Shown piece by piece: positions 8,965 to 21,625 of a DNA stretch of 64,000 nt (its first letter is position 1; the number at the start of each line of letters is the position of its first letter). Both the position numbers and the translations under genes were made by a program. The notes beneath the pieces were generated by a model that was given only the letters and a program-made list of their open reading frames with translations, had not been told where the DNA came from and did not search any database. This DNA comes from a virus (lineage: Duplodnaviria > Caudoviricetes). Location of the stretch: the IMG/VR virus record IMGVR_UViG_3300042549_006197, positions 9,164-73,163 of that record; one strand, written 5' to 3'.

Positions 8965-9697
8965 CTTCTTTAATTGCATTTAAGAACTGATCGATCTGAC
9001 GACCAAATCCTACACCGCCACGTTCATACCAGTAATCATAATCACATTCGACATAATTACGAAACTCATGGCCTCCAACAGTCAAACCATCTCGAATTGC
9101 AAGATTAGTCAGAACACTTTGATCGTTTCTGTGTGCAACAAAACCTTCCAGTTCTTCACCTTCCACACTTGGATCATTGTTAATGATGCGAGGATCTAAA
9201 CAATATTTTTGCCATTCAGCAATCATTTCTCTTGTTTTGTCAGTGACTTTCCAGACCATAAAACCACATTCAAGTTGACGCTCATTCCAATAGTCTTCCT
9301 CATCACAATCCATTAGAATAAAACAGTCGCGTTTAGTATACTGACCGTTCATATTGTTGCTGATTAACAACATTGAAATGTCATCCGTATCATTCATCTC
9401 CTTCTCAACATACAGTCTCAAACCAGGAGAGAACATATCACCACAGTCACAGTAGAGAACATAATCTCCGTCTGCAGCGTGTTCCATTGCTTGCGAAATG
9501 ACATAGGGTTTCCATGCCCACCACCCAGCTCCAACTGGAGCATCAAGAAGTTCTTTATTCTCAGCATAAAAATCTGTGGTTTCTAACCATTCCCGATTAT
9601 ATGCATGATGACAAAATTCTTCCTCATGAATATCATGAAGATACTTTTGTTTGTCTAAAAACTTTTCGTTTGCAAATGTTACCAAATGCCAAGTCAT
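8957..9697 (-). CDS. putative glycosyltransferase
   Basis: WAWKPYVI, YCDCGD, HRNDQSVLT, seen in GT-A fold proteins. Confidence 0.6.
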   Translation of the reverse strand: MTWHLVTFANEKFLDKQKYLHDIHEEEFCHHAYNREWLETTDFYAENKELLDAPVGAGWWAWKPYVISQAMEHAADGDYVLYCDCGDMFSPGLRLYVEKEMNDTDDISMLLISNNMNGQYTKRDCFILMDCDEEDYWNERQLECGFMVWKVTDKTREMIAEWQKYCLDPRIINNDPSVEGEELEGFVAHRNDQSVLTNLAIRDGLTVGGHEFRNYVECDYDYWYERGGVGFGRQIDQFLNAIKEDA

Positions 9698-13300: not shown

Positions 13301-14037
13301 AGTTTAAATGTGGGGATGGGTTCCATTTTATGTTTGTTTTGGGAGTTGAATTTTTGAAGAACTTCAACACCAGGACCAGTTCCGTACTCCATTGCTTCTT
13401 CCAGTTGAACATATGAAGCTCCAAGTTGATCTTCATCTGTTCTACCATCATCCCACAGACCATCTGTAGGAGCAGCGTTAATAATACGTTCGTCTACACC
13501 AAAGTGTTTGCCAAGTTCCCATACTTCAGTCTTATACAGATCTGCGATAGGAGCAATGTCAACTCCCCCGTCACCATATTTAGTATAGAACCCGACACCA
13601 TAATCTTCAACCTTGTTACCAGTACCCACTACAATACCACCGACAGTTGTAGCAACTTGATAAAGAGTTACCATGCGAAGACGTGAACGACTGTTTGCAA
13701 GAGCGTGTTTGTCAGCACCAAATTCGCGCATGGTGAATTCAAAGGTATTAAACACTTTTGAAAGATCAAACTTTTGAACTACAACGTTACTAAAGTTTGA
13801 TTCAAGCCACTCAAGGTGAGCATCAGAAAGAGTTTCTTGTTCTTCCTTTTGATAGATTGGCATTCCCAGCGTGTACACAGGAAGACCAGTCTTAGCAGCA
13901 AGAGTTGATGACACTGCAGAGTCAATACCTCCAGAGACACCAATAACAAATGCTTTAATATTAAATTGTTCTGCGTAGTCCTTTAACCAAGAAACGATAC
14001 GTGTTTCAAGTTCAGAATAGTTTTCAATGCGGTTCAT
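13297..14037 (-). CDS. nadE: NH3-dependent NAD+ synthetase
   Basis: SGGIDS, RLRM, GTGNKVED..GFYTKYGDG, PTDGLW. Confidence 0.92.
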   Translation of the reverse strand: MNRIENYSELETRIVSWLKDYAEQFNIKAFVIGVSGGIDSAVSSTLAAKTGLPVYTLGMPIYQKEEQETLSDAHLEWLESNFSNVVVQKFDLSKVFNTFEFTMREFGADKHALANSRSRLRMVTLYQVATTVGGIVVGTGNKVEDYGVGFYTKYGDGGVDIAPIADLYKTEVWELGKHFGVDERIINAAPTDGLWDDGRTDEDQLGASYVQLEEAMEYGTGPGVEVLQKFNSQNKHKMEPIPTFKL

Positions 14038-15095
14038 TGTTCAGCGTGTTTTTTCTCAATTTGTTCGTTAATCCATGCGTATGTTTTAGCAATACCCTCT
14101 TCGAGAGTCATGGAGTAGTCCCATCCTAACTTAGAACGAATAAGATCGTTGTTACTATTGCGACCACGGACACCCAATGGTGCATTTAAAATATGTTCTT
14201 TATCAACATATTTGTTTGCTACCTTTGCAGCAGTATCCACAAGTTGATTGATAGTAACCATTTCTTCAGATCCAATATTCACTGGACCCATGAAATCACT
14301 TTCCATCATTCTACGGGTTGCTTCGATGCATTCATCGATGTACAGGAAGGAACGAGTCTGTAAACCGTCTCCCCACACCTCGATTTTTCCTCCTGCGACT
14401 GGAAGATAGGCCACCTTGCGGCAGATTGCTGCGGGTGCTTTTTCTCTTCCACCTTCCCAGGTTCCTTCAGGACCAAAGATATTATGGTAGCGAGCGACCC
14501 GTACAGGGATGCCATGGTTACGGTTATAAGCGAAAAAGAGTCGCTCACTAAAAAGTTTTTCCCAACCGTACTCTGAGTCTGGAGCAGCAGGATATGCAGA
14601 TTCTTCACGACAATCGGGATTATCGGGATCAAGTTGATTATATTCTGGATACATACAAGCAGAACCAGAATAAAAAATCTTAGTTACATTTTTACCAAGG
14701 CGCTCGTTCATCTGACGCTGCATTTCAAGAATGTTCAGATTGATTGCGCAGGAGTTATGCATGATTTCTGCATCGTTTTCTCCAGTGAAAACGAAACCTG
14801 CTCCCCCCATATCAGCTGCAAACTGATAGATCTCATCAAATGGTTGAATATAACGATAAGGAACTGACTGATAAAAATTACCAGCATCTCCTTTCCATTC
14901 GAGAACACGAGCAACAAAATCTACATCGCGGAGATCTCCAACAACAAATTCATTTGCCTCTGTTTTGGAAAACTCAGGACGCTTAAGATCTACACCACGA
15001 ACCCAATATCCTTCAGCTCGCAGTCTTTTTACCATGTGACTTCCAATGAAACCACCAGCACCAAGGACCAGTGCCTTCTTAACGTATTGACTCAT
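14034..15095 (-). CDS. NAD-dependent epimerase, GDP-mannose 3,5-epimerase-like (WcaG family)
   Basis: GAGGFIG, AADMGGAGF, YGWEK, REKAPAAICRK, WGDGLQTRSF. Confidence 0.9.
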   Translation of the reverse strand: MSQYVKKALVLGAGGFIGSHMVKRLRAEGYWVRGVDLKRPEFSKTEANEFVVGDLRDVDFVARVLEWKGDAGNFYQSVPYRYIQPFDEIYQFAADMGGAGFVFTGENDAEIMHNSCAINLNILEMQRQMNERLGKNVTKIFYSGSACMYPEYNQLDPDNPDCREESAYPAAPDSEYGWEKLFSERLFFAYNRNHGIPVRVARYHNIFGPEGTWEGGREKAPAAICRKVAYLPVAGGKIEVWGDGLQTRSFLYIDECIEATRRMMESDFMGPVNIGSEEMVTINQLVDTAAKVANKYVDKEHILNAPLGVRGRNSNNDLIRSKLGWDYSMTLEEGIAKTYAWINEQIEKKHAEQ

Positions 15096-15121
15096 AAAAT
15101 TATTAATTGTTCTCTGTATAT

Positions 15122-15150
15122 ATCATACAGAAAAAGGAGGTTATTGTCAA
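15122..15150 (-). promoter_or_regulatory. sigma70-type promoter for glycosylation operon
   Basis: TTGACA-N17-TATGAT. Confidence 0.75.
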
Positions 15151-16196
15151 GTACATGGGATGTGTATAACATCGTTAAATTGTTCCATTGAAAGTCTTGT
15201 AAGTGCTAAAAAAGTTCCAGCTTTAATTGCAAAAGAAAATCTATCCATCTGTGCCAAATTTGAAAGAGGCATTACTTTGTGTTTAATTGAAGAATCAAAA
15301 ACTATAACTCTCCCCGGCTTAAAATCGACTGCCTTATGAAAAGGTGAATCTTCGCTGTAAAATTTAATATCTCCAGCCCACACATCATCCCATTCAATAT
15401 TTGGATATATTAGAATTGTTACTCCATTTGAATTATTTGAAAGATCGACGTGAGCACTTGTTGTAGTTGATTTTGTATAATGCCCAATATAATATTGTGT
15501 GAGAAATAGATCTTGTCCCAATTCATTTGCAATTCTTCTAAAATATGGTATCAAACCAGTTCTTATAAGATCCTCTTTAGACAAGTGGGAGGCAAATCTG
15601 GTGGATCGATCTTTATCTTTAGAAAAACCGTTACTTACATGTGAACAGATATATTGTGAGTTTGTCGCAAAAGCATATAAACTATGCGTAAAATGATATG
15701 GAAACAAATTATCCATTATTTTAATATCATTTTCGACTGAATTTTTTGAAAATGGATTTATTTTTCTATTTAAAGAATCTAAAAGAATATTATATAATCG
15801 TATATAATAATCGGATTTATTTGAGTTTAAAGATATGAGATTTACCTTACAAATTTTTACTATATCGGATAATGTTTGATTGTCCCAACTAAAATTTCCC
15901 CTTAAAATATCATTTTCTCTGTCTTTTAATAAACACATTTCATATACTAATTTTTCAGCATATTCTCCTATTTCATTTCGTATCAATTCTCTATCATTTT
16001 CTATTGTTTGAACAGTCACATTAAAATAGCAAGTGCCGTAGATTGAATGATACAATCCTGCATTACATACGTCTTCCGACATATTTTCTTTTCTTAATAT
16101 TTCATATACTTCAATACAATGGTTGATAAATTTTTCGGTTGCAATTGGAGATTGTTTAACCAATTCAATAAATTTTTCTACCATAATTACATTCAA
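15147..16196 (-). CDS. HD-like domain fused to 2OG-Fe(II) oxygenase
   Basis: N-term H...AGLYHSIYGT; C-term HVD..H..R with W..GDIKF and PGRVIVFDS; AT-rich. Confidence 0.75.
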   Translation of the reverse strand: MNVIMVEKFIELVKQSPIATEKFINHCIEVYEILRKENMSEDVCNAGLYHSIYGTCYFNVTVQTIENDRELIRNEIGEYAEKLVYEMCLLKDRENDILRGNFSWDNQTLSDIVKICKVNLISLNSNKSDYYIRLYNILLDSLNRKINPFSKNSVENDIKIMDNLFPYHFTHSLYAFATNSQYICSHVSNGFSKDKDRSTRFASHLSKEDLIRTGLIPYFRRIANELGQDLFLTQYYIGHYTKSTTTSAHVDLSNNSNGVTILIYPNIEWDDVWAGDIKFYSEDSPFHKAVDFKPGRVIVFDSSIKHKVMPLSNLAQMDRFSFAIKAGTFLALTRLSMEQFNDVIHIPCT

Positions 16197-16209
16197 ATTT
16201 TTAAAAAAA

Positions 16210-16217
16210 TATTTATA
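16210..16217 (-). promoter_or_regulatory. T4-type late promoter
   Basis: TATAAATA upstream of the HD-2OG gene. Confidence 0.7.
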
Positions 16218-16220
16218 CTA

Positions 16221-16246
16221 AAAAGGGAGATTGATATCAATCTCCC
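16221..16246 (-). terminator. terminator-like hairpin
   Basis: GGGAGATTGATATCAATCTCCC palindrome followed by TTTT. Confidence 0.7.
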
Positions 16247-16253
16247 AATGATT

Positions 16254-16343
16254 CAGGCTCGCCACCAATTCTTTAACTGGAAATTGGAAACCAGGCGGGG
16301 TTGCCCCATCCGCACCACTTGTTTTTTAAAGAAACAAGAAACT
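16254..16343 (-). ncRNA. wcaG-like structured RNA
   Basis: Two stem modules each followed by UGGYG, a GGGG-CAA-CCCC hairpin and CUGG/CCAG pseudoknot potential; lies upstream of a WcaG-family epimerase, as reported for the cyanophage wcaG motif (recalled, not searched). Confidence 0.65.
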
Positions 16344-17053
16344 TATTTTTTTCTAAAAAACCTAAATGGGCATTTGGAGATTTTATTAGAATCAAATATA
16401 ATATCATGATATTTAAATCCCAAACTGTGTCGTTTTGAATTTACAAAAAATATTCTTTTATACATATCCGAAAGTTGTCGTGGATTGATTTCATCATAAA
16501 TTAAATTAAAATTATCATTATGATTTTTACTATGAAATTTTATACAGTATAAAGGATCTCCTCTATTAATAATTATAGGTTTATCTCTATCCACAACAAC
16601 TGCCCCAATATTAATTAATCTGGGCCAATTACTCAAATTAAACCACCCACCACAATGATAAAAATTATTTTTTAAAGATGTTAATGGGTGAGGAAGAATT
16701 GATATCCAAATGTTTTTATCTTTAGTCCAAAAAAAATTACTATACAAATTTGCAATCTGAATTATTGAATGTTTACCGTTATTCCAATTTTTTGCAAGAC
16801 TAACGTATTCATCAAATTCGTTTTGATTTAAATTATTTGAATGAACATAATCAGAATTTGTATCTATTTGTAGATGTAAATTTGATGATGCATAGACAGT
16901 AAAAATTTTAGAACTTTGATGAGCCCATACTGGACAAGATGAAAGAATAGAATCTTCCGAATAACTTGTATCAATTTTTATTGGTACATGCAAATTCTCC
17001 ACAGAAGATGGAGATTTTGGATCAGGATGATAAAAAATTTTTTTACTTTTCAT
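16343..17053 (-). CDS. hypothetical protein (possible dUTPase-like beta fold)
   Basis: AT-rich 236 aa ORF; IIINRGDPLYCIKF; ends KCPF. Confidence 0.6.
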   Translation of the reverse strand: MKSKKIFYHPDPKSPSSVENLHVPIKIDTSYSEDSILSSCPVWAHQSSKIFTVYASSNLHLQIDTNSDYVHSNNLNQNEFDEYVSLAKNWNNGKHSIIQIANLYSNFFWTKDKNIWISILPHPLTSLKNNFYHCGGWFNLSNWPRLINIGAVVVDRDKPIIINRGDPLYCIKFHSKNHNDNFNLIYDEINPRQLSDMYKRIFFVNSKRHSLGFKYHDIIFDSNKISKCPFRFFRKK

Positions 17054-17077
17054 TTTAGGTCAAATTGACTCCACCAC

Positions 17078-17311
17078 TTAGTTTTTCGAAACTAAGAAAA
17101 GTTGGGATAACTTTGATATTTCGGAGATACCAAAGAATGCACATAAGAATAGCACATCCCAAAGTTTAAGTTTAATTGCAAAAGGTATTGTAAGTAAACC
17201 TCCAACACATTTTAACAACAAACCATTTTTAAAATCTCCCCATAACATGATTTGATAACCAGTAATAAGGAAAAGGTTTCCAAGATACCTTAAGATACTT
17301 GATTTAGACAT
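17078..17311 (-). CDS. small 3-TM membrane protein
   Basis: Three hydrophobic segments; paralog of 47156..47413. Confidence 0.7.
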   Translation of the reverse strand: MSKSSILRYLGNLFLITGYQIMLWGDFKNGLLLKCVGGLLTIPFAIKLKLWDVLFLCAFFGISEISKLSQLFLVSKN

Positions 17312-17337
17312 AGGGGGTTTGCTCCCGACCAGTGCTG

Positions 17338-17580
17338 TTATAGACCATCCGTGTCTTCATCATCACGTACATAACAAGGTACACCTTCAGGATCAAGCCA
17401 TTTGGTGTATTCAAAATCTTCCATAGCAGTTGCCAATTGCATTCCATTATCACACAAGTACATGTCAGAATAACGCTTAGTCCAACTATCTGCTTTTTGA
17501 ATTCGATAGTCGGGGAACCCATTTTCTAGGGTTCCACATTCTACATAACGATAAGGAAATCGTTCAAGAATAATGTTCAT
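17338..17580 (-). CDS. conserved cyanophage hypothetical protein
   Basis: ERFPYRYV..G.L.NG.PDYRIQK; ATGA coupling to the upstream ORF. Confidence 0.7.
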   Translation of the reverse strand: MNIILERFPYRYVECGTLENGFPDYRIQKADSWTKRYSDMYLCDNGMQLATAMEDFEYTKWLDPEGVPCYVRDDEDTDGL

Positions 17581-17792
17581 GCTACTTCGACAGATTCGAG
17601 ATCATTGAAGACATATTCCATAAGCATTTCATAGTCATCCAGAGGATCACCAGAGAATACCACACCTTCGCTTTCATAGTAACGACGAACCTTTTTATAA
17701 AGTTTTGGATTCTTTACATCAAGATAGAAATCGCCGCTAGCTGCGCCACGAAGAGTTTGAATGTCTTTCTTGAATTTTGCTGTGAGAGTCAT
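17577..17792 (-). CDS. conserved cyanophage hypothetical protein
   Basis: FYLDVKNPKLYKKVRRYYE; downstream of a promoter. Confidence 0.7.
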   Translation of the reverse strand: MTLTAKFKKDIQTLRGAASGDFYLDVKNPKLYKKVRRYYESEGVVFSGDPLDDYEMLMEYVFNDLESVEVA

Positions 17793-17814: not shown

Positions 17815-17844
17815 ATTATACTAGTTTGACAGGTGACCTGTCAA
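17815..17844 (-). promoter_or_regulatory. sigma70-type promoter with palindrome
   Basis: TTGACA-N18-TATAAT; TTGACAGGT-C-ACCTGTCAA perfect inverted repeat. Confidence 0.7.
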
Positions 17845-17845
17845 G

Positions 17846-17918
17846 TGCTCCTTGAGGGGATTGAACCCACCTTAGCCGAATTATGAGTTCGGTGCATTCA
17901 CCAGATTGCTAAAGGAGC
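17846..17918 (-). tRNA. tRNA-CAT (Met or lysidine-type Ile2)
   Basis: Cloverleaf GCTCCTT/AAGGAGC, anticodon arm CCGAA-CTCATAA-TTCGG, GGTTCAA T-loop. Confidence 0.88.
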
Positions 17919-21533: not shown

Positions 21534-21553
21534 ATAAGAACCCGAAGGTTCAG

Positions 21554-21625
21554 AGCGGATGACCCGATTCGAACGGGCGACGAACTGCTTGGAAGGCAGC
21601 CATTCTACCACTGAATTACATCCGC
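21554..21625 (-). tRNA. tRNA-Gly(TCC)
   Basis: GCGGATG/CATCCGC, loop CT-TCC-AA, U discriminator. Confidence 0.93.

Follow-up and report, generated by a model that had tools for sequence, protein, structure and literature searches.

The wcaG RNA locus and its genes

The DNA analyzed here is a 64,000-nt stretch (the window; positions 9,164 to 73,163 of IMG/VR virus record IMGVR_UViG_3300042549_006197) from a virus of the Caudoviricetes. On its minus strand, to which all the features below belong, lies an array of small RNA hairpin modules that ends in the wcaG RNA (Rfam family RF01761), with protein-coding genes slotted between some of the modules. The modules are named S (the "5' element"), U1, U2 and U3 in the 5' to 3' direction. 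The layout in the window is S, a gene for a 77-amino-acid (aa) protein (p77), U1, a gene for a 236-aa protein (p236), U2 and U3, a terminator, and two further genes, p349 and p353, that are named likewise by the length of their products. Upstream of S lie a conserved 71-aa gene (p71, 17577-17792; phrog_552) and a very conserved 80-aa gene (p80, 17338-17580; phrog_481). A first-pass annotation of the sequence had described three hairpin units with small hairpins, a related 5' element and two open reading frames (ORFs) between them, and all of these are present on the minus strand at the junctions that it gave, with the 5' element at 17356-17313. As read from the sequence, the region is one sense-strand, single-copy, modular RNA element with covarying modules, bounded by a predicted promoter and terminator.

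Three genes can be regarded as cargo of the locus. The first, p77 (17078-17311; phrog_2318, E 5e-20), encodes a hydrophobic protein with relatives in 98 phage records by tblastn; its TAA lies in the 3' arm of U1, and its final codons are also within the U1 hairpin. The second, p236 (16343-17053; phrog_17480, E 1.6e-32), is an AT-rich ORF (GC 0.26) that starts at 17053, five nt past the small hairpin of U1, and ends with a TAA (16345-16343) that abuts the GTTTC of U2; tblastn finds relatives of its product in 12 phage records. Both ORFs are real phage gene families. The 236-aa protein has no match in Pfam, and its nearest Atlas clusters are in part DUF6065 (23-31% of members). Given that homologues of p236 are found in other cyanophages at unrelated positions elsewhere (10 kb in S-H38, 84 kb in S-T4 and 189 kb in S-SM2), it is a roaming accessory gene. 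The third, p349 (15147-16196), encodes a protein with domain matches to DUF6817 (HD-like) and to a 2OG-Fe(II) oxygenase. It is followed by p353 (14034-15095), which by family matches encodes a WcaG-like NAD-dependent epimerase/dehydratase, the protein from which the RNA takes its name.

The core is a single wcaG RNA

An Rfam scan of the whole window identifies U2, a GGGG/CCCC hairpin and U3 together as a single canonical wcaG RNA at 16251-16346 (102.9 bits, E 1.1e-18, model positions 1-98, against a gathering score of 42). Aligned with the consensus, units 2 and 3 correspond to P1 and P3 of RF01761 and the GGGG/CCCC hairpin to P2. U2 falls within 16341-16313 and U3 at 16290-16260, with the GGGG-CAA-CCCC hairpin between them. 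All three stems are paired in the window, with UGGUGCGGAUGGG after P1 and GUGGCG after P3. No ORF interrupts the U2-U3 core in any of 110 unique U2 copies; U3 starts 25-33 nt past the UGG of U2 in 99 of these and at 83 nt in one, and in the remaining 10 U3 is degenerate. Rather than two free modules, U2-P2-U3 is a single known and indivisible RNA. Thus the array of three copies of one unit proposed in the first-pass annotation is only partly upheld: all three units are real, but they are not equivalent, given that two of them belong to one RNA and that U1 and the 5' element are separate families.

The only other match to RF01761 in the window covers the unit 1 region (17062-17141) with 24.8 bits and an E of 0.054, below the gathering score, and U1 alone is not a member of wcaG. 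When the scan of 15900-17700 is extended to E values of up to 10, only chance-level matches (SpF39, snoRNAs and the flavivirus CRE) appear besides the two to wcaG. Both the wcaG and manA models had been suggested for the region, and no manA RNA is found in the window at the Rfam gathering threshold.

Chance was controlled for with a pattern of TTT, a stem of at least 5 bp, a loop, the complementary stem and TGGYG, applied to the window and to 50 dinucleotide shuffles. The pattern has five matches in the 64-kb window, against a shuffle mean of 0.22 (maximum 2), and the three with 7-8 bp stems, all on the minus strand, are the three units described above. An ORF runs through wcaG in one relative (L009), and annotated coding sequences (CDSs) overlap the RNA in S-SRM01 and Syn9. 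A small peptide encoded in the core was considered and rejected, since the reading frame shifts with loop length among relatives.

Two module families outside the Rfam model

Upstream of the core, U1 and S are two further conserved, covarying module families that lie outside the Rfam wcaG model. The expectation of a multi-module, covarying, sense-strand RNA related to wcaG has been borne out by the covariation in the stems of both.

U1 (17053-17102) is made up of TTTT, an 8-bp hairpin with stem CTTAGTTT/AAACTAAG (17096-17077), a tail, GTGGTGGAG (TGGTGGAG at 17076-17069), and a small hairpin, GTCAATTTGAC (17069-17059). The window copy conforms to the layout of the family, of which 51 distinct copies were collected: UUUC, a covarying hairpin of 7-8 bp, GUGGUGGAG and a GUCA...UGAC mini-hairpin. 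A covariance model (R1) of 40 sequences, from which the window and 11 misaligned or near-identical rows were excluded, matches the window at 17053-17102 with 62.2 bits and an E of 2.2e-16. The same model also matches U2, with 21.1 bits, and therefore U1 and U2 are related. In 52 sequences, the U1 stem is paired in 92.6% of cells and has double-sided changes at five of its eight pairs. There are 37 compensatory cells, compared to 10.8 +/- 2.3 in shuffled alignments, a number reached in none of 500 shuffles, and slid controls collapse.

S (17313-17359) consists of a 4-bp hairpin (AGAC-ACGGATG-GTCT), a linker, ATAACAGCAC, a tail, TGGTCGGGAG, and a small GGG/CCC hairpin, and the UAA of its linker is the stop codon of p80. 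The family has a covarying hairpin of 4-5 bp, a 7-nt loop of the form NYGGANN, a linker that contains YUAAA and a UGGUSGG tail, and the window copy conforms to it. Stems interchange between copies (AGAC/GTCT, AGTC/GACT, CGTC/GACG and CGTG/CACG). Loops include ACGGATG, ATGGAGA and GCGGACA, and GGA is found again in the tails. A covariance model (R2) of 66 sequences, with the window excluded, matches 17324-17359 with 44.4 bits and an E of 9.7e-13, its sole match in the window. Among 90 sequences picked on tail and linker alone, the S stem has 61 compensatory cells, against 21.7 +/- 3.5 when shuffled, and none of 500 shuffles reaches that number. A loose S pattern has 101 matches on the gene strand against three on the opposite strand; L-type modules have 107 matches in 52 of 87 loci, all on the gene strand, and none on the opposite strand of the 567 kb covered.

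Every module folds on its own into a small hairpin, behind which come a conserved single-stranded UGGYG tail and usually a second mini-hairpin, and S, U1, U2 and U3 keep a fixed order with distinct tails. The fold of a contiguous array of 236 nt from a relative (L014) is no more stable than that of shuffled sequences (z = -1.08). A global fold of the ORF-free array was rejected on this basis, and the array is better described as a string of local hairpins.

Two resemblances to tRNA were also seen. After UGGU, the U2 tail (16306-16312) continues as GCGGATG, the first 7 nt of tRNA-Gly(UCC) at 21553-21625, and UGGYG is the complement of the CRCCA at tRNA 3' ends, with nine tRNA genes just upstream of the operon. 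A link of the tails to tRNA was set aside as probable chance, given that the tRNA-Gly match is mismatched at the discriminator position and that the other tails have no counterpart.

Arrays in other cyanophage loci

Two sets of IMG/VR loci were collected, the first of 80 loci fetched by way of the 80-aa protein, and the second, unbiased set of 119 new loci fetched by a 14-mer of the wcaG core. In the second set, 89 of the 119 are true wcaG loci and the remainder are chance matches to the 14-mer. Seventy-four loci have at least 1200 nt of upstream sequence, and in all 74 of these at least one S or U1 module precedes U2. The core is preceded by one to three further modules throughout this sample, in the arrangements S-U1-U2 (29 loci), S-S-U2 (28), S-U2 (13), U1-S-U2 (2) and S-S-U1-U2 (2).

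The 137 junctions between modules are bimodal in length. Ninety-five are shorter than 120 nt (5-98 nt, mostly 13-26), and 42 measure 148-770 nt. An ORF of at least 40 aa fills 41 of the 42 long junctions, and in 41 of 42 cases its stop lies between -24 and +8 nt of the next module. Genes of unrelated families occupy the same junctions: a cupin of the mannose-6-phosphate-isomerase type, 2OG-Fe(II) oxygenases of two kinds, a coiled-coil protein of 72 aa, the membrane protein p77 and p236. Arrays wholly free of ORFs also occur (L014 and L029). The accessory modules can be separated by genes, and the core is not. Since folding is local to each module, whole genes can be accommodated in the linkers of about 20 nt that join S, U1 and U2.

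Several loci depart from the common arrangement. In Syn9 (L003, 3078-3240), the tail of the third module is of the U1 type (GTGGTGGAGTCAACGACCC) where UGGCG would be usual; a TTGACA-17-TATAAT promoter comes next, no terminator hairpin is obvious, and the annotated gp208 CDS overlaps the RNA. In S-RIM4 (L004, 3704-3960), a U3-like module lies 134 nt ahead of U2, and the module after U2 is without the UGGCG tail. An S-type hairpin substitutes for the U2 hairpin before the usual UGGUGCGGAUGGGG tail in two loci (L020, 4729-4925, and L037). In ACG-2014f (L005, 2717-2790), the 77-aa gene ends in a lone L-type module with a UGGUGCG tail and then a terminator, with no core, and in phage B3 (L007, 2492-2725) the 77-aa gene comes after the 71-aa gene, and both the 80-aa gene and the modules are missing. 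S-CAM7 (L006, 2760-2815) has an additional GTCGG..CCGAC-TGGCGCG module between U1 and the core.

Gain and loss of genes between modules

Seven IMG/VR contigs are near-identical relatives of the window, with 71-aa, 80-aa and 353-aa products that are 96-100% identical to its own. Among them, p77, p236 and p349 are present or absent independently of one another. L008 has the layout of the window minus p349 (with a p236 that is 66% identical), and L011 has that layout with p349 present (p236 62% identical). In L009 and L010, p77 and U1 are followed directly by U2-U3 and p353, with neither p236 nor p349; L012 and L013 are like L009 with p349 added and also lack p236. L014 has none of the three genes, and its S, U1, U2 and U3 are contiguous in about 200 nt. 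The order p77, U1 and core is also contiguous in S-SRM01 and S-CAM7. The homolog comparison proposed in the first-pass annotation thus came out as it had anticipated, with modules contiguous in some genomes (L014, L009, L012 and S-SRM01) and different ORFs at the same junctions in others.

The cargo differs from its surroundings in sequence as well. Nucleotide identity between the window and L008 is 99-100% over p71, p80 and S, 95% over the core and 94% over p353, compared to 84% over p77 and 78% over p236. The cargo genes are AT-rich, with GC of 0.26-0.30 versus 0.38-0.43 in the conserved genes. These gains and losses look like the ordinary plasticity of a hyperplastic region of a T4-type phage.

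Both forms of the locus also occur in public sequencing data, which consist of contigs, and in which the RNA libraries may contain DNA, so that they are evidence only that both forms exist. A lake-water DNA run has contigs with p236 (depth about 24) together with contigs joined across the p236 gap (depth 25-38). In three riverine RNA libraries, contigs link p80, p77 and U1 straight to the core in relatives without p236. Depth in the RNA libraries is zero over 15900-16234 and over p236, which is uninformative given that the covered relatives are without those genes. A further contig, from a lake-water metagenome (run X9), joins 16342 to 17611 and skips 1268 nt. It suggests relatives with the core after the 71-aa gene and without the 80-aa, 77-aa and 236-aa genes, and it fits the eight of 71 loci with the 71-aa gene only that are described below.

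The array at the probable end of an early operon

A sigma-70-type promoter, TTGACA-18-TATAAT, matches the consensus in 12 of 12 positions at 17815-17844, directly after tRNA-Met (17845-17918) and ahead of p71. An inverted repeat, TTGACAGG/CCTGTCAA, has the -35 box as its 5' arm, so that the site is a stem-loop promoter without a T-run, and it is the probable start of the transcription unit. Directly behind U3, at 16210-16246, lies a composite of an intrinsic terminator and a promoter, in which a hairpin (GGGAGATTGA-TATC-AATCTCCC) is followed by TTTTT; TTGATA is inside the hairpin and TATAAATA comes 17 nt later. The terminator part (16246-16220) is the only minus-strand terminator-like site between the promoter at 17844-17815 and p349. 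Because these two sites bound it, the array would be the tail of an early unit of 1.6 kb, and it looks like the 3' tail of an early operon rather than the 5' untranslated region (UTR) of the epimerase gene.

The census is in line with this position. A hairpin with a T-run occurs within 130 nt after U3 in 87 of 105 unique copies, compared to 14 of 525 random segments. Behind 74 of the 87 terminators there is a -10-like box, and in 55 a TTGNNN lies in the hairpin at a spacing of 16-18 nt. Where at least 1500 nt of upstream sequence is available (71 true wcaG loci), p80 lies within 1500 nt upstream of the RNA in 55 loci and p71 alone in eight more. On the downstream side, an epimerase starts within 400 nt in 11 of 52 loci, and an epimerase/dehydratase homologue lies within 2.5 kb in 36 of 52. 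In the window, the terminator and a promoter-like site separate the RNA from the 349-aa ORF, which weakens the link to a downstream WcaG epimerase that the first-pass annotation had implied.

A second promoter, TTGACA-17-TATGAT, lies ahead of the epimerase gene at 15122-15150 with a remnant of the 3' half of a terminator hairpin, AACCTCCTTTTT. This composite is without its 5' arm and is almost identical to the composite found right after wcaG in L009 and L014. The 349-aa gene has been inserted into the terminator/promoter composite behind the array.

Proposed function

The strict occurrence on the gene strand and the covariation of the stems point to selection on RNA. The unpaired parts are very conserved and repeated (GUGGUGGAGUCA, GUGGUGCGGAUGGGG, CCUGGUUUC, UGGCGWGC and the S loop), which suggests repeated, sequence-specific recognition by a factor. 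Because the array sits just before a terminator, control of the fate of the 3' end, by stability, termination or read-through, is also suggested. We therefore favor, tentatively and at slightly less than an even chance, a reading in which independent factor-binding modules govern the fate of the transcript at the terminator. Among the ideas in the first-pass annotation, repeated sites for protein binding or processing are the most plausible class. The modules would be repeated binding sites for a trans-acting factor, either a phage protein (for instance, the 80-aa or 71-aa product) or a host factor. This factor would act on the transcript, or on the elongating polymerase, just ahead of the terminator, and would determine whether the RNA ends there, is stabilized, or is extended by read-through into the sugar-nucleotide genes. 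The element would then not be a 5'-UTR riboswitch of the epimerase gene.

Some of the results weigh against this proposal. Neither the 80-aa nor the 71-aa protein matches a Pfam family or, in a PDB profile search, a protein of solved structure, and in the Atlas both have only unnamed viral clusters. Eight of the 71 wcaG loci have neither gene within range, and in a count of p80 loci modules stand behind p80 in 50 of 71, by a pattern that misses degenerate forms; these counts do not establish an obligate pair of protein and RNA. A terminator is not detectable behind 18 of 105 U3 copies, including that of Syn9, which has a promoter only. Contigs from the RNA libraries cannot show transcript starts, ends or strand. 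Finally, ORF stops that abut the modules fit a role in cistron punctuation equally well.

In such a role, each module would be a processing or stability signal placed after an ORF, with a hairpin that blocks 3' exonucleases and a UGGYG tail that is an endonuclease site, so that a polycistronic early RNA would be cut into stable pieces, an idea already raised in the first-pass annotation. The stops of the 80-aa and 77-aa genes within S and U1, the position of the stop next to the following module in 41 of the 42 ORF-filled junctions, and the hairpin and conserved single-stranded tail of every module all agree with it. We consider punctuation unlikely nonetheless, given that 95 of the 137 junctions (5-98 nt) have no ORF to punctuate, that the wholly ORF-free arrays of L014 and L029 are conserved, and that a fixed order and distinct tails for S, U1, U2 and U3 exceed the needs of a generic stabilizer hairpin.

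A more specific form of control at the terminator, to which we assign a similarly low likelihood, is that the S-U1-wcaG array is a processive antitermination system like nut or put, perhaps in a ribonucleoprotein that includes the neighboring 80-aa or 71-aa protein. Each module of hairpin, UAAA and UGGYG would load a factor on the polymerase as it leaves the 71-aa/80-aa operon. The modified polymerase would ignore the terminator, which is similar to the composite stem-loops of T4-type phages (PeSLs; see below), and enter auxiliary sugar-nucleotide or high-light genes. Since such a modification would last for kilobases, genes could be slotted between modules at no cost. If this were correct, wcaG would be a new class of antiterminator RNA rather than a riboswitch, and the first in cyanophages.

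The analogy rests on a shared design. Like the nut, put and EAR antitermination RNAs and the boxB-boxA-boxC elements of rRNA (rrn) operons, the array has cis-acting modules of hairpin and single strand that lie ahead of terminators in the nascent RNA. A link to polysaccharide operons is known for EAR and ops elements. The order within S of hairpin, A-rich linker (CUUUAACAG in some copies) and GU-rich tail recalls boxB, boxA and boxC, with the linker compared to the E. coli boxA sequence. The arrangement of boxB, boxA and boxC in rrn operons and the sequence of boxC have been described (PMC10250234). In 87 of the 105 copies a terminator lies within 130 nt downstream, in the position of one that would have to be read through. 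Unlike in the rrn case, the leader motif of picocyanobacteria that was read by eye as boxA, GCACTCTTTGAAAC, matches the module linkers only partly (CUYU..AA).

Mimicry of boxA was rejected, given these partial matches and the failure of the S model to match any of 35 cyanobacterial rrn loci (best E 0.08). Among Synechococcus, Vulcanococcus and Prochlorococcus, the 16S leaders (L226, L236, L273, L209 and others) do share a motif, ACGGATCTGAGATCYTGGAAAGTCAC, in which a hairpin is followed by UGG, as well as GTGCACTCTTTGAAAC-like motifs. The ACGGATCTGAGATCYTGGAAAGTCAC motif and the P2 region of wcaG have CGGAU and YUGG in common, a similarity that is not significant with the S model.

Relation to known elements

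In the literature searched, wcaG is treated as no more than a candidate riboswitch or presumed cis-regulator that precedes exopolysaccharide or high-light genes (PMC2864571, PMC9602691 and PMC9964418, in their available text). That text assigns it no function and does not describe the upstream modules, the terminator/promoter behind it, the link to the 71-aa and 80-aa genes or the genes between modules, although the supplementary alignments of 2010 may show more. No relevant Syn9 transcriptome study was among the papers listed by a search for one. The window copy is a full-length, high-scoring member of the family, with the three-hairpin layout, UGGYG after P1 and P3, and T4-like cyanophages as hosts. 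Unlike the 98-nt model, the array here adds S and U1 upstream, with genes between them. The RNA is also tied to the upstream 71-aa and 80-aa genes, with a terminator and a promoter before the downstream gene, which makes a 5'-UTR role doubtful. The finding is therefore an extension and a re-reading of a known RNA, in which the core is a plain member of RF01761 and the S and U1 modules are new.

The motif as curated, 98 nt long, represents just the 3' portion of a longer modular array that also contains two new covarying module families. This array appears to lie at the 3' end of an early operon, that of the conserved 71-aa and 80-aa genes, and the terminator/promoter composite cuts it off from the gene that it was thought to regulate. 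Whole genes are tolerated between its accessory modules and never inside the core. Factor binding, 3'-end control and antitermination are now more promising functional lines than ligand sensing in a 5' UTR.

For a classical riboswitch, the U2-P2-U3 aptamer, perhaps aided by S and U1, would control downstream sugar-nucleotide or high-light genes by way of the terminator. Weinberg et al. rated wcaG in 2010 as a probable riboswitch (PMC2864571, available text), conserved unpaired nucleotides next to an intrinsic terminator do resemble an aptamer with its expression platform, and an epimerase/dehydratase homologue lies within 2.5 kb downstream in 36 of the 52 loci. Such a switch is nonetheless improbable, to a greater degree than punctuation or antitermination. 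The terminator stems vary freely while the core is constant, and no conserved alternative pairing is seen by eye. The next gene has its own promoter, to judge by the -10-like box after 74 of 87 terminators and the -35-like box in the hairpin in 55, and it is variable: an epimerase within 400 nt in 11 of 52 loci, an oxygenase-like gene of 349 aa here. The RNA accompanies instead the upstream 71-aa and 80-aa genes, in 63 of 71 loci.

Just as improbable is a trans-acting small RNA or protein sponge, in which a stable RNA of about 200 nt, made up of the array and its terminator, would be set free and would titrate an RNA-binding protein, much as CsrB or RsmZ does, or would pair with host targets. 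Like those RNAs, the array has tandem short hairpins (four or five) closed by a rho-independent terminator, with GGA in the NYGGANN loops of the S hairpins and in the tails. Such GGA-bearing loops resemble CsrA/Rsm binding sites. The loops of L-type modules, in contrast, have no GGA, and CsrA (PF02599), which was considered as a partner, was not found in the 73-kb record, which is about 38% complete. Unlike a sponge RNA, the array is co-linear with coding genes, and arrays broken by translated genes of 0.2-0.8 kb cannot be compact small RNAs. Nor is a separate promoter seen ahead of S, which overlaps the end of the 80-aa gene.

Least probable are recombination sites in the DNA, with modules that would act as cassette junctions (as in integron attC sites, T4 PeSLs or Chi sites) to capture and excise ORFs. 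The ORFs do come and go exactly at module junctions in near-identical genomes, the cargo alleles are far more diverged than their flanks, and the CTGGTGG of the tails resembles the E. coli Chi sequence. Against this, the covarying stems, which include G-U pairs, and the occurrence on the gene strand only point to RNA selection, the 77-aa and 236-aa junctions show no direct repeats, and recombinase and integrase families have no match among the six ORFs from 14034 to 17792. In each of five complete cyanophage genomes, S and U1 matches with E < 0.005 are confined to a single locus rather than dispersed in hyperplastic regions, which also speaks against the dedicated cassette-array mechanism that the first-pass annotation had entertained. 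The locus is a clean natural example of gene insertion in a phage without destruction of a structured RNA.

Promoter early stem-loop elements are a separate matter where p349 is concerned. PeSLs are composites of a stem-loop terminator and an early promoter in T4-type phages (Arbiol 2010, PMC2839356; Comeau 2014, PMC4122927; available text), described in phages of gram-negative hosts, and the main text of PMC4122927 nowhere uses the word "cyanophage". The modules S, U1, U2 and U3 differ from PeSLs in having neither a promoter nor a T-run and in their RNA-type covariation, and S and U1, as noted, are not dispersed in the five complete genomes as PeSLs are. In contrast, the site behind the array (16246-16210) has the composite make-up of a PeSL: a stem-loop with a T-run, in which the hairpin contains a -35-like box and a -10 box follows. 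Both promoter boxes are correctly spaced in 55 of the 87 terminators found after wcaG. ORF indels among near-identical T4-like phages are the same phenomenon as that described for PeSLs. The 349-aa cassette lies between two related terminator/promoter composites (16246-16210 and the half-copy at 15160-15122, of which 15150-15122 flanks the indel), as in PeSL-mediated shuffling (PMC2839356 and PMC4122927), and because of this flanking pair the p349 indel looks PeSL-mediated.

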